Below are positions 10,573 to 49,249 of a DNA stretch of 64,000 bases, piece after piece. Below the pieces are notes generated by a model. It saw only the letters and a program-made list of their open reading frames with translations, was not told the DNA's origin and ran no database searches. This DNA comes from an uncultured Chloroflexia bacterium (lineage in GTDB: Bacteria; Chloroflexota; Anaerolineae; Anaerolineales; UBA4823), in contig CAVYQO010000010.1 of NCBI GenBank assembly GCA_963770655.1, forward strand, positions 58,651-122,650, given 5' to 3'. The translations under genes and the position numbers were made by a program. Each line of letters starts with the position of its first letter. Within the stretch, counting starts at the first letter, position 1.

Positions 10573-11724
10573 TTAACCTTTAAACTTGAAATTTAGCAGC
10601 CTCTTCCCGGCCTCCACCAGTGTCTCATCTTTCTTGGCAAAGTTCATTCGCACGTAATCGTGCACGGCTTCGTGGAAGAAATACGAGCCGGGCGTTGCAG
10701 CAATCCCGATGGTTTCGATCATCCAGCGGCAGAAATCATAATCGTTAGCAAATCCAAATTGGGAAATATCGACGAGCACGTAATAAGCCCCTTGCGGCTC
10801 GATGTAGCTTAGCCCGGCCTGGCGCAGCAAGTCTAGAAAAAGGTCTCGCTTGCGAGTGTATTCGCTTTGCATATTCCGGTAATAGCTTGGGGGAAATTCA
10901 AGGGCGGTCACGCAGGCTTCCTGCAGGGGGGTGGGGGCGCATACGGCCAGGAAATCGTGCACCTTGCGCAGCCCGGCGCTGATCGCCGCTGGGGCGATGG
11001 CCCAGCCTACCCGCCAGCCGGTGACGGCGTAGGTCTTAGAGACCGAGCTGCACGAGACGGTGCGTTCGAACATGCCCGGCAGGTTAGCAATATAGGTGTG
11101 CTGGTAAGGGGCGTAGACGATGTGCTCGTAGATCTCATCGGCCAGCACGTAAGCGTCGTACTCCACGGCCAATTCGGCGATGACTTGTAATTCAGCGGGT
11201 GAGAAGACCTTGCCGGTTGGGTTGGAAGGGTTGCACAGTACCAGGACTCGCCCACCGGCCTGGAAAGCGCGGCGCAGCTCATCTGGGTCGAAACGCAGCT
11301 CTGGAGGGTGCAGGGGGATGTGGATCGGTTCGACTGCTAACAAATGCGAATCGACAATGTAGGCTTCGTAATGAGGTGAGAATACGATGACCTTATCTCC
11401 CGGGTCGGTCAGGGCAGTGAGGGCTGCTAGCAGGGCTTCGGTGCCGCCGATGGTGACGGTGACGTGTGCATCTGGGTCGATTTCCAGCCCGCTGAAGGCG
11501 CTGTGCTTGGCGGCAATTGCGCGGCGTAGGCGCGGTGAGCCCCAGGTGGAGGAATATTGGTTGTGGCCGGCGGTGATGGCCTGGTGGGCGGCGGCAAGCA
11601 GCTCGGCGGGTGGATCGAAGTCAGGGACGCCCTGCACCAGGCTGAGCGCTCCGTGCTGCTCGGCCAGGCGCGCCATCATGCTGATCGCTGAGTTCGGGAA
11701 GAAGTTTAAGCGGGAGGTGGTCAT
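10573..11724 (-). CDS. class I/II pyridoxal-phosphate aminotransferase
   Basis: LCNPSNPTGKVF and the PLP-lysine motif SVSKTYAVTGWRVGW. 383 aa. Confidence 0.85.
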   Translation of the reverse strand: MTTSRLNFFPNSAISMMARLAEQHGALSLVQGVPDFDPPAELLAAAHQAITAGHNQYSSTWGSPRLRRAIAAKHSAFSGLEIDPDAHVTVTIGGTEALLAALTALTDPGDKVIVFSPHYEAYIVDSHLLAVEPIHIPLHPPELRFDPDELRRAFQAGGRVLVLCNPSNPTGKVFSPAELQVIAELAVEYDAYVLADEIYEHIVYAPYQHTYIANLPGMFERTVSCSSVSKTYAVTGWRVGWAIAPAAISAGLRKVHDFLAVCAPTPLQEACVTALEFPPSYYRNMQSEYTRKRDLFLDLLRQAGLSYIEPQGAYYVLVDISQFGFANDYDFCRWMIETIGIAATPGSYFFHEAVHDYVRMNFAKKDETLVEAGKRLLNFKFKG

Positions 11725-11783
11725 TGCGGGCTCCGAATGGATCCCTTACGCTCTACATCAACGGGTAGAGCATAAGGGAAGGG

Positions 11784-12746
11784 TTATTTTTTGACGACGG
11801 CCATTTCATCGCGGACTGCCTGGTACAGGGTCTCGGCTTTGAGCTCGCTGAGCGTGTAGCACGGGGCTTCGAGGTGCTCGGCCAGGCTCTGCGCCAGGCC
11901 CTGGTCGAAAGCGGCATGCTCCATATTAATCACCACACTGTGGATGTCCTGGTCAGCGATCTGCTCGGCCAGGCGGTTGGCTTCCTCCTGCGGCGGAATT
12001 TGGGTCAAGGAGACGTTGCCGGCGCCATCGGTAAGCAGGATCATCAGCGGGTTGACATCGGGGTGGAGCAGGCGCTCCCGTTGGATGACTTCGAAAGCCA
12101 TGAACAGCCCGGCCGAGAGCGGCGTTTTACCGCCGACGGGGATGTCGGCCAGGGCTTGCTGGGCAAGCTGGATTGAATTCGTTGGAGGCAGGATCAGGGT
12201 GGCGCGGTTTTTTTGGAAGACAACCAGCCCAACCCGGTCGCGGCGTTGGTAAGCATCGGTGAGCAAGGAAAGGATGGCGCCTTTCGTCGCGGCCATGCGC
12301 TCGGCGACTGCCATCGACCAGGACGCGTCCACAACGAACAGGATCAGGTTCGAAGCCTTCTTGACGCGGATCTTGCGTTGGAAATCGCTGGAACGAATGG
12401 CAAAAGCAACCCGCTTGCGCAGCTCGTTGCGCTCTTTTTGGTAAGGGGCAGCCGCACGCAGGGTGGCGTCAAAAGCCAGGTCATCGGTGCGCCCGTTGGC
12501 CGGGCGAGCTCGAATGTAGCGGCCGCGTTTACGCTCAGTGTGCGTTCGTGAACGGCGCCCGCCAAGGCGGCGAGAGATGCGGTCAAGTGGGTTTTCGATT
12601 TTGCGCGGTGAAAAAGGCGCCCCAATTTTTACCTTATCGCCGCCCTCCCACCAGTTGGTGCTGACCTGGTCAAATACCTCCTGGCGAGCGGGCTCCGAAG
12701 GGGCCTTTTCAGTTTCCTCGGTTTGGGCTTCGCTGCTCAGGGTCGC
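11784..12746 (-). CDS. vWA-domain reading frame (ChlD/BchD-like linker plus C-terminal half) without its own start codon
   Basis: MIDAS motif DASWSM ... TDGAGN. The frame is open from 12824 but has no ATG/GTG/TTG before the GTG at 12332, which lies inside the first vWA strand (LILFVVDASWSM). The frame is -1 relative to the upstream ChlI ORF. The junction is an A10 run. Confidence 0.7.
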   Translation of the reverse strand, partial: ATLSSEAQTEETEKAPSEPARQEVFDQVSTNWWEGGDKVKIGAPFSPRKIENPLDRISRRLGGRRSRTHTERKRGRYIRARPANGRTDDLAFDATLRAAAPYQKERNELRKRVAFAIRSSDFQRKIRVKKASNLILFVVDASWSMAVAERMAATKGAILSLLTDAYQRRDRVGLVVFQKNRATLILPPTNSIQLAQQALADIPVGGKTPLSAGLFMAFEVIQRERLLHPDVNPLMILLTDGAGNVSLTQIPPQEEANRLAEQIADQDIHSVVINMEHAAFDQGLAQSLAEHLEAPCYTLSELKAETLYQAVRDEMAVVKK

Positions 12747-13837
12747 TTTTTTTTTTCGTCTGCCATTTCGTCGCTGGGCAGTGGTTCGGGCTCGCCAGCG
12801 CTGGAGGCAGCGCCCTGGAGCTGCTCAATGCGCTCCTGGAGATCTTCCATGCTGATCTCTGCCTGGTGGAAGGGACCGCGTTTGATGCGGTGGGGCAAGG
12901 CCAGCTCAGCCGCCAGGGCGATATCCCGGTCGGTGATGGCGGAGCGCCCTTCGAATGCGGCGTGCGCCCGGGCTGTCTTTAAGATCACCAGGTCCGAGCG
13001 GTGGCCATCGACATTCAAAGAAGAAGTCAGAGCGGCGATAGAAAGCAGATCGCGGCTGGTGTGGGTGACCCTATCGACAATGGCGCGACCAGCTTCGATC
13101 TGGTGCGAAAGTTCCTGCTCTTTGATTTCCCATTGATCGCGGAAATCTTCCGGCCCGGATTCGAAAGCCAGGTTGCGCTGCATGATCAAAACCCGTTCGC
13201 GGGCATCCCGAATGCCGCGGATTTCGACCGAGAGGGCAAAGCGATCGAGAAGCTGGGGGCGCAGATCGCCTTCTTCGGGGTTCATCGTCCCCACCAGGAT
13301 AAAGCGCGAGGGGTGGGCAAAGGAGATGCCTTCGCGCTCGACGATATTCACGCCCATTGCGGCTGAATTGAGCAGGAGGTCGACGACATGATCGTCTAAC
13401 AAGTTGACTTCGTCGATATAGAGCAGACCGCGGTTCGCCGCGGCAAGCACGCCCGGCTCAAAGTGGCGCTCGCCGCGCTGGATAGCCTTTTCGATATCCA
13501 GGGTGCCTACGACGCGGTCCTCGGTGGCGCTCACTGGCAGGTTTACAAAACGAATGCGGTGCTTGCTGATCACCAGCTCTTTACCGCTGTTCATCTGCTC
13601 CTTCACCCAGTCGGACCAGGTGTTTGGGGCACGCGGGTCATCATTGAAGGGCGAGTCGACAAAAACCTCAATTTCAGGAAGCAAAGCGGCCATGGCTCGG
13701 GCGGCAGTGGACTTGGCAGTGCCGCGCTCGCCGCGGATCAAAACCCCGCCAATGCGCGGATCGACTGCATTTAGCACAAGCGCACGCTTCATGCGCTCCT
13801 GACCGACAATGGCCGTAAATGGATAAATCGGCGGCAT
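12737..13837 (-). CDS. ChlI/BchI-type AAA+ chelatase ATPase subunit
   Basis: MPPIYPFTAIVGQERMKRAL, Walker A GERGTAKST, Walker B LLYIDEVNLL, MNPEEGDLRPQLLDRF. It ends ...DEKKKRP two codons after an A_AAA_AAG heptamer. Confidence 0.9.
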   Translation of the reverse strand: MPPIYPFTAIVGQERMKRALVLNAVDPRIGGVLIRGERGTAKSTAARAMAALLPEIEVFVDSPFNDDPRAPNTWSDWVKEQMNSGKELVISKHRIRFVNLPVSATEDRVVGTLDIEKAIQRGERHFEPGVLAAANRGLLYIDEVNLLDDHVVDLLLNSAAMGVNIVEREGISFAHPSRFILVGTMNPEEGDLRPQLLDRFALSVEIRGIRDARERVLIMQRNLAFESGPEDFRDQWEIKEQELSHQIEAGRAIVDRVTHTSRDLLSIAALTSSLNVDGHRSDLVILKTARAHAAFEGRSAITDRDIALAAELALPHRIKRGPFHQAEISMEDLQERIEQLQGAASSAGEPEPLPSDEMADEKKKRP

Positions 13838-13888
13838 GATTACCTCAAAAGTATGATTTTAACCGAGTTAATAATATTATCACAAAGG

Positions 13889-13959: not shown

Positions 13960-15309
13960 ATGGAAAACAACAACGCCCTGATCGGGCATGGGCCTGAGGC
14001 CGATAACGAACAAATGACAGAAAACCCGCCTGAGTTGGGGGGGCAGGAGATGACCTCGATGGAGTCTCTCCTGGAAGAGCAGGGTCTCAGCCTGGAATTT
14101 CCAAACCAGGGCGAAATTCGCCAGGGTTTCATAGCTACCATTCGTGACAACGAAATATTGGTCAGCATCGGTACAAAATCGGAAGGTGTTATTTCAGCCC
14201 GAGAGCTGGAACAGATTCCATCCGAAGAGCGCGCCGCCTTTACAATCGGCCAAGAGATCCCCGTTTTTGTTGTGGCTCCTGAAGACGCCAACGGCAACGT
14301 TGTGCTTTCTTATGTGCGAGCCCGTGAAGAGAAAGACTGGGAAATCGTGGAAAGTCTGCTGAGCACAGGTGATTCTTACCCAAGTAAAATCATCGGCTTC
14401 AATAAAGGCGGCTTGATTGTTCCGATCGGCGGGCTGCGTGGTTTTGTTCCTGCCTCGCAGATCAGCCTGACTCGGCGCAGCGCGGGCGACGAATCCCCCG
14501 AGCAGCGTTGGGGGCGGATGGTCGGCGAAGAAATGAACGTGCGCGTGATCGAGGTCGACCGCGAACGGCGCCGCTTGATCCTTTCCGAGCGCATGGCTCT
14601 GCAGGAAACTCGCGAAACTTTGAAAGATCGCCTGCTGGACGAGCTTCAGGAAGGCAGCATTCGCACGGGTCGGGTTACCAGCCTGGCAGATTTTGGCGCA
14701 TTCGTCAACATCGAAGGCGCGGATGGGTTGGTGCACCTTTCCGAAATTTCGTGGGAGCGCATTCAGCACCCTAACGAAGTACTGAAGGTCGGTCAGGAAG
14801 TAAAAGTCAAGGTGATCAGCATCGACCGCGATCGCAAGCGCATCGGTCTTTCCATGCGTCAGCTCCAGGAAGACCCCTGGGTGCAGAAAGTCGGTCACCT
14901 CAAAGAGGGCATGCTGGTCGAAGGTACGATCACCCACCTGACCAAGTTCGGGGCGTTTGCCCGCCTGGACGAAGATCTGGAAGGTCTGATCCATGTCTCG
15001 GAGTTGAGCGAACAGCGCGTCGCCCACCCGAAGGAAGTGCTGCGTGAAGGTGAAGTGGTCACCTTGCGGGTGATTAAGATCGACCCCGAACGGCGCCGCA
15101 TCGGGCTGAGCCTGCGAAAAGTAGACTCACCGGCGTATGCCGATCTGGACTGGAAGATGGCCCTGTCCGATGAAGTGGGCAAGGTTCACGATGCCGGGGC
15201 CGTGGTTGAATCCGAACCCGAACCCGAACCCGAAGCGAACTCGAGACTCGAAGCAGAAGTGGACGAGCAGCTCGAAGCAGAAGTGGACGAGCAGCCCGAA
15301 GCAGAATAG
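13960..15309 (+). CDS. rpsA: 30S ribosomal protein S1
   Basis: ATG at 13960, 15 nt after GGAG. It has repeated S1 motifs (GRVTSLADFGAFVNIEGADGLVHLSEIS; EGTITHLTKFGAFARLDEDLEGLIHVSELS; and others) and an acidic repetitive tail. The TTG start at 13897 from the track is rejected. Confidence 0.85.
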   Translation: MENNNALIGHGPEADNEQMTENPPELGGQEMTSMESLLEEQGLSLEFPNQGEIRQGFIATIRDNEILVSIGTKSEGVISARELEQIPSEERAAFTIGQEIPVFVVAPEDANGNVVLSYVRAREEKDWEIVESLLSTGDSYPSKIIGFNKGGLIVPIGGLRGFVPASQISLTRRSAGDESPEQRWGRMVGEEMNVRVIEVDRERRRLILSERMALQETRETLKDRLLDELQEGSIRTGRVTSLADFGAFVNIEGADGLVHLSEISWERIQHPNEVLKVGQEVKVKVISIDRDRKRIGLSMRQLQEDPWVQKVGHLKEGMLVEGTITHLTKFGAFARLDEDLEGLIHVSELSEQRVAHPKEVLREGEVVTLRVIKIDPERRRIGLSLRKVDSPAYADLDWKMALSDEVGKVHDAGAVVESEPEPEPEANSRLEAEVDEQLEAEVDEQPEAE

Positions 15310-47983: not shown

Positions 47984-49249
47984 ATGAAAAATTTCGGTAA
48001 GTTATTGACCCTCGTGATTTTAATCTGCTTCCTGGCCGGCTGTGCAACTCCCGCACCGACAGCCGCCCCGGTAACGCAGCCGGCAGCAGCCGAGCCGGAA
48101 AACCGGCCGACACTGCCGTTCCAGCGCCGACAGAAGTCCCCCCCACTGAAGCGCCCGCTTTGACGCCAAAGGAAGAATGGCTGAAAGCGAACCAGCTTGG
48201 CACTTATACTTCCGATACCCAGGACTGGGCTGCGATCGAAGAAGCTGCCAAGAAGGAAGGAAAAGTAATCGTTTATGCCAACTCTTCCAAGATTGCCAAT
48301 GCAGCCGAGATTTGGGCGGAGAAATACCCGGACATCGCCATAGAAGGATATGATCTGGGCGGCGACGATGTGCTTTCTAAGACTATCGGAGAGCAGGAAT
48401 CGGGCCTGGTCGTTGGCGACGTTTGGTTCAGCAGCGGCGGCGCTGAAGTCGTCGGCAATGTTCTGCCAAAAGAATATGTCTGGCGCTTCATACCGGATAG
48501 CGTATCTGTATCTCCCGAATATACGGAGCCACTATTGATGTCCCGACTTGGAACGACAATATTGGCTTATAACTCGGAGCTAAACGAAAAATGCCCGGTG
48601 ACCAACCTTTGGGAATTAACCCAACCGGAATGGAAAGGCAAGTTTGTCATCGAGGATCCGCTAAATGACGCCTCCACGCTGAGCAAACTGCTCACCATTG
48701 TTTACCACGCTGATGAAATGAAGCAAGCGTATATCGATCTCTACGGGTCCGAACCAGTACTGGATGCCGATACCCCGGACGCTGGCTGGTTGTGGCTTAA
48801 GAAGTTTGCTCAGAACGCCCCCATCCCGCAGCCAGGCGGCGATGAAGTCGAACTCAGCCTTTGCCGCCCCAGGGATGAAAGATAGTCTGCTTGCCTTTAC
48901 CTCGTACTCGAACTACCCCGATGTTCAAGATGGCAACCTGGCCTTTGAGCCATGCTGGGGCGTTACGCCGATCAGCGGTATTCAGGCGCAAAGCTACCTG
49001 GGCGTCATGAACCAGGCGCCGCACCCGAACGCGGCTAAGTTGTTTATTAAGTTCATCACGAGTGCAGACGGGCGCGATCCCTGGGCTAAATTTGGCACCT
49101 ATTTCCCCGACCCAACTTATGAAGTGCCGGAAGGCCAATTGACCCTGGATGAAGTGCAGAAATTGACCTGGTTTATTCCGGAGCAATTTGCCTACGATAA
49201 TCTCGTTCAGGCTCGCGACTTTTATTTGTTGAACTTGGGTACACCGTAA
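47984..49249 (+). CDS. ABC importer substrate-binding lipoprotein, two frameshifts (48099-48102 and about 48841-48860)
   Basis: MKNFGKLLTLVILICFLAGC lipobox, then a Pro/Ala/Thr linker. The three track ORFs 47954..48163, 48160..48885 and 48764..49249 join into one family-1 solute-binding protein. The first break is an A4 run that needs A5. Confidence 0.75.

Follow-up and report, generated by a model that had tools for sequence, protein, structure and literature searches.

A conserved poly-A tract at the AAA+/vWA junction of a putatively recoded chlD gene in an uncultured member of the Anaerolineales

Introduction

In Escherichia coli, two products are made from the single AAA+ gene dnaX by −1 programmed ribosomal frameshifting, which occurs on the heptamer A_AAA_AAG with the aid of an upstream Shine-Dalgarno (SD) sequence and a downstream stem-loop. 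In Thermus thermophilus, the tau and gamma products of dnaX are reportedly made by transcriptional slippage on a run of nine A's (A9). Here we analyse a gene of the chlD type that carries the E. coli heptamer inside a run of ten A's (A10), located in a 64,000-nucleotide (nt) stretch of contig CAVYQO010000010.1 from an uncultured Chloroflexia bacterium of the order Anaerolineales. This whole stretch is called the window below, its coordinates are used throughout unless another contig position is given, and the gene lies on its minus strand. We consider it highly likely that this is one recoded gene, from which slippage on the poly-A tract would give both a ChlI-like product of 366 amino acids (aa) and a ChlD-like product of 684 aa.

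Recoding has already been described in this gene family. Antonov et al. 2013 (PMC3711429) reported a cluster of genes, termed 'magnesium chelatase', in which the frame changes by −1, and in E. coli reporters of these frameshifted genes the shifted product amounted to 10%, 40% and 63% for 7, 9 and 11 A's, respectively. According to Atkins et al. 2016 (PMC5009743), purifying selection acts on the A_AAA_AAR site. In the statements of Kuznetsov, Milenkin and Antonov 2022 (PMC9227772) that cite Antonov 2020 (Mol Biol Evol 37:2268), one chlD gene gives the small subunit as well as the medium one. The same 2022 paper names the frameshifted gene (fs-chlD) in the Anaerolineaceae, with Anaerolinea thermophila, Ornatilinea, Longilinea, Levilinea and Brevefilum fermentans as carriers, and it defines a 'stage 1' genotype that has fs-chlD, lacks the large subunit, lacks a chlorophyll or B12 pathway and is of unknown function. 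A sequence-only reading of the window had pointed out that Antonov and co-workers reportedly proposed frameshifting in chlD genes, and the three papers (PMC3711429, PMC5009743, PMC9227772) confirm the concept.

As judged from its sequence, the present locus is an instance of this published fs-chlD recoding, having a ChlI-type N-terminus, a vWA C-terminus in another frame, a collinear joined product and a conserved A-rich site in the overlap of the two frames. It shares with the published genes the family, the AAA+/vWA split, the A_AAA_AAR site within poly-A and the same expected small and medium subunits. The window's genome belongs to an uncultured Anaerolineales genus that is not among the carriers listed in PMC9227772, and it differs from A. 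thermophila in having no separate chlI, one being reported there for A. thermophila.

Results

On the minus strand, the junction reads ...GCA GAC GAA AAA AAA AAG CGA CCC TGA. The zero frame is that of an open reading frame (ORF) for a ChlI-type AAA+ ATPase, which runs from ATG 13837 (12737..13837) and ends in ...ADEKKKRP-TGA after 366 aa. The A10 homopolymer (complement: a T run), which we take as the slippage tract, occupies 12747..12756 at the AAA+/vWA junction. The heptamer A_AAA_AAG lies at 12746..12752 in the zero-frame phase, with AAA at 12751-12749 and AAG at 12748-12746 as its codons, and the zero-frame stop TGA (12737..12739) is reached 7 nt past the end of the run. The vWA domain is read in the −1 frame, which is open from 12824 to a TAA at 11784, and the two frames overlap over 88 nt (12737..12824), inside which the shift must fall. 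Past the tract, the −1 frame continues (11784..12746) as ATLSSEAQ...VVKK-TAA, comprising a charged linker and the vWA domain (Pfam VWA_2, VWA). Its first ATG, GTG or TTG is the GTG at 12332, which is codon 164 and falls within FVVDASWSM, so that about 138 codons past the tract have none of these starts and cannot be started independently. Based on the computed translation, a −1 slip would yield a protein of 684 aa (...ADEKKK-ATLSSEAQ...). All these features, namely the A10 run with the heptamer in phase at the junction, the 366-aa ORF, the extent of the −1 frame, its first start and the length of the slip product, had been put forward in the sequence-only reading, and they hold.

The predicted 684-aa product is collinear with full-length ChlD-type proteins. 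When joined, it matches the NCBIfam model TIGR02442 ('putative cobaltochelatase') over positions 1-640 of 641 with 758.4 bits and TIGR02031 (BchD-ChlD) over positions 1-606 of 608, of which the vWA part covers positions 361-640 and 346-606, respectively. The 366-aa product alone matches TIGR02030 (BchI-ChlI) with 410.7 bits over residues 5-327, and it matches the ChlI/BchI structures in the Protein Data Bank, with E = 1.6e-102 for 6l8d and E = 2e-93 for 1g8p, 8osf also being within 1e-93 to 1e-102. In Pfam, the upstream part is recognised by AAA_lid_2, Mg_chelatase and AAA_5. Both functional motifs are intact: the Walker A motif GERGTAKS (13709..13732, as counted from ATG 13837), at residues 36-43, is common to both products, and the metal ion-dependent adhesion site (MIDAS) motif D-A-S-W-S (DxSxS) of the vWA domain lies at 12315..12329 in the translation (LILFVVDASWSM), as counted from GTG 12332. 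An SD-like GAGG, read from the sequence (ttttGAGGtaatcATG), is present at 13843..13846, 6 nt 5' of ATG 13837.

The junction was compared with those in 61 genomes from within the genus, the family and the order. The vWA part was matched at E ≤ 0.001 in 57 of the 61, with 54 clear orthologues (E ≤ 1e-80). With few exceptions, the open vWA frame in these spans no more than about 320-440 codons, i.e. it is not joined to the ATPase. With the addition of 80 named loci from genomes of Genome Taxonomy Database (GTDB) species, by which the group is identified as metagenome-assembled genomes of Anaerolineales/Anaerolineaceae, the total came to 111 distinct junctions. Every one of the 111 has a run of A8 to A14 at the AAA+/vWA junction, and in 110 the run has at least nine A's. 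The two parts are out of frame in 108 loci, a −1 shift being needed in 95 (A10 in 51, A9 in 42, A14 in 1, A8 in 1) and a +1 shift in 13 (A10 in 7, A9 in 6), and they are in frame in the remaining 3, all with A9. The extremes of tract length are the A14 of locus L092 (JBEULG010000020.1), which has the −1 arrangement, and the A8 of locus L114. Both halves of the gene are open and 61-91% identical across the order, no clear orthologue having a stop inside the matched region.

In all three genomes of the same genus, the junction is GAC GAA AAA AAA AAG C(G/A)A CCC T(G/A)A, where tract and phase equal those of the window, and the window's GACGAAAAAAAAAAGCGACCC context is identical. Most of the −1 loci with A10 have the unit GAA AAA AAA AAG in the same phase, and in 83 of the 95 loci of the −1 class the zero-frame stop follows the run within 7 nt. 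Over all 111 loci, the tract occurs in codon phases 0, 1 and 2 and is followed by G, C or T. A tree built from the vWA part shows nine changes of frame class, at least four of which are forced by well-supported branches, compared with about 15 changes for shuffled labels. As far as this tree goes, the tract thus outlives the switches of frame arrangement. Where the two parts are in frame (three genes), neither of the other two frames stays open for long past the tract, as seen by eye for locus L025, where closure occurs after 6 codons in the +1 frame and after 12 codons in the −1 frame; in such genes slippage would yield the short product. The conserved element is a homopolymer of nine or more A's, which may stand in any codon phase, and not one heptamer. 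The earlier description of a dnaX-type heptamer was right in that the heptamer is present and in phase, and too narrow in that what is kept, also in the +1 and in-frame classes, is the run. On the question, raised in the same reading, whether orthologues keep the heptamer and the near zero-frame stop, the near stop is kept in most loci of the −1 class, and it is the homopolymer rather than the heptamer that is kept.

It is also observed that a small clade (L023, L071-L074 and L081) has A10 in phase 0 (GAT AAA AAA AAA AGA CC...), needs a +1 shift and carries a zero-frame tail of 47 nt; its contigs have both short-read-style and long-read-style names, which makes an assembly artefact unlikely in this clade.

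In the 4.39-Mb genome with 53% GC, A/T runs of length 10 number 3, compared with 2.6 expected. An A10 run is thus rare yet possible by chance, and the real evidence is its position and conservation. Moreover, AAA makes up only 58% of the lysine codons genome-wide, which means that an unbroken A run is not a by-product of codon usage; together with the linker codons flanking the tract, which vary freely among the loci, this indicates that the unbroken run is held at the nucleotide level. As a side observation on such runs, the genome has ten A/T runs of at least nine nt, four of which lie within 2.5 kb at G000:C10:6721-9217, about 50 kb left of the window, in a region of 46% GC with short, broken-looking ORFs, where three of the runs share the context GGAAT(A)TTTTTTTTT.

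A downstream stimulatory structure was considered as a candidate and rejected. In the window, no stimulatory fold is detectable downstream (107 nt, z = −1.39), and among the 111 loci the 60 nt past the run show no conserved hairpin (mean z = −0.23, median 0.02). A scan of 12400-13000 against Rfam at E ≤ 1 gave no match. No consistent internal SD was found upstream of the run, an SD-like 4-mer occurring in 44 of the 111 loci in a region that is purine-rich. These results agree with what the sequence-only reading had said, i.e. that it saw no convincing hairpin downstream or SD upstream.

With respect to function, the window's own genome, which is 95% complete and in which positive controls were found, gave 0 matches to CobN/ChlH (PF02514), and CobN/ChlH is present in 1 of the 61 relatives. 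CbiC (PF02570) was not found in the own genome, and ALAD/HemB (PF00490) was found neither there nor in the three same-genus genomes. Among the relatives, ALAD is present in 23 of 61 and missing from 38; its presence shows no link to that of the gene (it occurs in 20 of the 54 that have the gene and in 3 of the 7 that do not). No second chlI was found in the own genome, only weak MoxR-like matches with E of about 1e-5.

Over the 111 loci, no downstream gene is linked consistently enough to be a conserved operon partner and with it a candidate for the missing large subunit. The downstream aminotransferase gene (10573-11745) is linked in 14 of the loci, the next commonest downstream family being linked in 12. 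The sole recurrent neighbour, in at least 42 of the 111, is a divergent gene like rpsA (ribosomal protein S1) upstream; in the window it lies on the plus strand at 13960-15309, and in the upstream flanks of L054-L133 it lies at about 1-300 in the gene's orientation.

Discussion

The pathway that we propose is as follows. Under standard decoding, translation would terminate at the stop 7 nt past A10, giving the 366-aa ChlI-like AAA+ ATPase. In a fraction of the expression events, the frame would move by −1 on the tract, which can be expected to occur by two routes. In the first, the RNA polymerase would add one A, giving an mRNA with A11; in the second, the ribosome would slip back on A_AAA_AAG. 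Either route would lead to the same 684-aa protein, which has the ChlD architecture of an AAA+ domain, a charged linker and a vWA domain with MIDAS. The 'I' partner of an AAA+/vWA complex and its 'D' partner would then come from the single gene, with their ratio set by the tract length. That recoding here would give a ChlI and a ChlI-linker-vWA product, as the sequence-only reading had suggested, is supported by the conservation of tract and frame and by the collinearity with TIGR02442, from which we infer that both proteins are produced.

Concerning the driving force, we infer that the slippage is driven by the length of the homopolymer, without stimulators, and length-driven slippage by the RNA polymerase and/or by the ribosome on A_AAA_AAG/A fits better than a dnaX-style stimulated heptamer. 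The shares of transcription and translation are probably near even, with a slight lean to transcription because of the independence of the tract from phase and frame, the lack of stimulators and the dependence of the efficiency on tract length in the 2013 reporters. RNA-polymerase slippage is accordingly at least as likely as the ribosomal −1 slippage that had been envisaged at first.

The comparison with the known systems can be made along the same lines. The locus and E. coli dnaX share the identical heptamer, the correct phase and the derivation of two products from one AAA+ gene. Of the elements of stimulated −1 programmed ribosomal frameshifting of the E. coli dnaX type, the X_XXY_YYZ heptamer is present (12746-12752) and the stimulators are not: by contrast with E. 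coli dnaX, the present loci have no conserved internal SD and no downstream stem-loop, and their next base and codon phase vary. Moreover, the shift in E. coli dnaX truncates the protein, whereas the shift here would extend it. What transcriptional slippage calls for, an A/T tract of about nine or more that is independent of phase and frame, is found across this locus family. The likeness to T. thermophilus dnaX lies in a tract of A9-A10 at a domain boundary, a shared N-terminal AAA+ module and no need for stimulators in the mRNA. The polarity differs, since in T. thermophilus standard expression gives the long product and slippage the short one, whereas in the −1 and +1 classes here slippage is predicted to yield the long product; the T. 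thermophilus polarity is matched by the 3 in-frame relatives alone. The published fs-chlD genes are described as having slippery sites plus downstream stimulatory RNA secondary structures, whereas here none of the latter is detectable across the 111 loci.

Some points weigh against the reading of the locus as one recoded gene with two functional products. The joined product, with its 758.4 bits, is slightly under the curated equivalog cut-off of TIGR02442, which is 779.45. There is no partner large subunit that would account for the need of an I:D pair. From DNA alone, slippage during transcription cannot be distinguished from slippage on the ribosome, because mRNA with A11 and a −1 slip in translation end in one and the same protein, and only cDNA sequencing separates the two. 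In addition, a one-base frame break is found at least once elsewhere in the assembly; we return to it below.

Of the other explanations, the one that survives best, which we nevertheless regard as highly improbable, is that there are two genes, with the vWA protein made alone by termination-reinitiation or from a non-canonical start near the ChlI stop and with no slip. It is noted that in the window a CTG (12740) in the vWA frame overlaps the TGA stop, that some relatives have GTGA or TTGA at the stop site, and that internal initiation alongside frameshifting was reported for some clusters by Antonov et al. 2013 (PMC3711429). If this explanation were true, it would be expected that a start codon is available at the equivalent site, whereas many relatives have GTAA, TTAA, CTAG or ATAA there, i.e. 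no start codon, and in the window the 138 post-tract codons are free of ATG, GTG and TTG. Separate initiation also leaves unexplained the invariant run of at least nine A's and its retention in the in-frame relatives, and the two halves, when joined, are collinear with ChlD-type proteins of full length.

Even less likely is an artefact of the assembly, where the true tract would be A11 (or A8), undercalled as a homopolymer, and the gene would be a plain ORF of 684 aa. An A11-to-A10 undercall had been named at the outset as the simplest alternative, with a warning that the assembly has frame disruptions; that caution was reasonable, since at least one is found. This is the case of a lipoprotein-type signal peptide (ATG 47985, ...LAGC lipobox) that is out of frame with the 294-codon ORF of its body (48001-48885), a mismatch that amounts to a one-base indel around 48060-48160. 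In-frame versions of the gene also exist, in 3 of the 111 relatives, but these have A9 and not A11. As the simplest alternative the undercall does not stand for the family: the same out-of-frame arrangement with its A run is present in 108 of the 111 loci, which come from many independent assemblies, and this rules it out as a general explanation. The tract is found on contigs with short-read-style names (NODE_, k141_, k127_), as given by SPAdes- and MEGAHIT-style assembly, as well as with long-read-style names (contig_N), the platform in each case being judged from the names. A10 and its flanks are identical in all three same-genus genomes, one of which has a contig named NODE_... that reads as a short-read SPAdes assembly. 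Moreover, in 83 of the 95 loci of the −1 class a stop lies no farther than 7 nt past the run, a pattern that a random undercall would not give. Very probably, therefore, an undercall is not the explanation for this genome either, as far as can be judged from the sequences compared.

The least likely is a decaying pseudogene, in which the gene, a chlD deprived of its large subunit, would be on its way to loss and the frame break would be an inactivating mutation; it is favoured by the own genome's lack of CobN/ChlH, CbiC and ALAD, with which the classical function is gone, and it is contradicted by the open and conserved halves across the order, by the intact Walker A and MIDAS motifs and by the sole lesion being always at the same tract.

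Returning to the preferred reading of one recoded gene, we consider what its two products may do. A role as a cobaltochelatase (CobN-ChlI/ChlD) or as a Mg-chelatase (ChlIDH) needs a large subunit and a substrate pathway, and neither was found here. Judging from its gene content, this genus looks unable to make tetrapyrroles, and it is unlikely, without CobN/ChlH, CbiC or ALAD, that the I/D pair works as a tetrapyrrole chelatase. The labels 'chelatase' and 'cobaltochelatase' denote ancestry and not a demonstrated function, which also applies to the 'chelatase motor' that had first been proposed. With the lack of a second chlI added, the window's genome fits the 'stage 1' genotype. As both the large subunit and the synthesis of tetrapyrroles are missing from the own genome and its relatives, it is most likely that the pair acts on a different client.

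A group of systems that may be instructive in this respect is that of the MoxR-type AAA+/vWA pairs, such as RavA-ViaA, NorQ-NorD, CbbQ-CbbO and CoxD-CoxE, where an AAA+ ATPase and a MIDAS-bearing vWA partner act in the insertion or remodelling of metal centres with no subunit of the CobN/ChlH type. By analogy, we speculate that the present pair might have a MoxR/vWA-like role in metal insertion or remodelling on a non-tetrapyrrole client; the proteins here differ from the MoxR-type pairs in being of the ChlI/ChlD type by sequence and in having no linked client gene, and the comparison is one of analogy only. Taking the observations together, we put forward as a tentative model, which we hold to be possible rather than probable, that the slippery-A chlD of the Anaerolineales is a stand-alone AAA+/vWA machine unrelated to tetrapyrrole metalation, whose phase-independent and mainly transcriptional slippage has been kept through the switches of arrangement in such a way that a short and a long subunit would always be made.

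Conclusion

The site is real and conserved, and the device is one already published for the chlD family and for this bacterial group. What goes beyond the first reading of the window is that the conserved element is a homopolymer in any phase without a hairpin, that the frame arrangement has switched repeatedly (4-9 times) and that CobN/ChlH, CbiC and ALAD are absent. For annotation, the two 'genes' should be treated as one recoded gene whose short product is ChlI-like and whose long product is ChlD-like, and neither as a pseudogene nor as an ATPase followed by a vWA protein that has no start. The locus adds one genus to a published recoding family that was already described in this bacterial family, and the wider data set sharpens two questions raised in the literature, namely whether the RNA polymerase or the ribosome is the shifter and what role the I/D pair has without a large subunit and a tetrapyrrole pathway.

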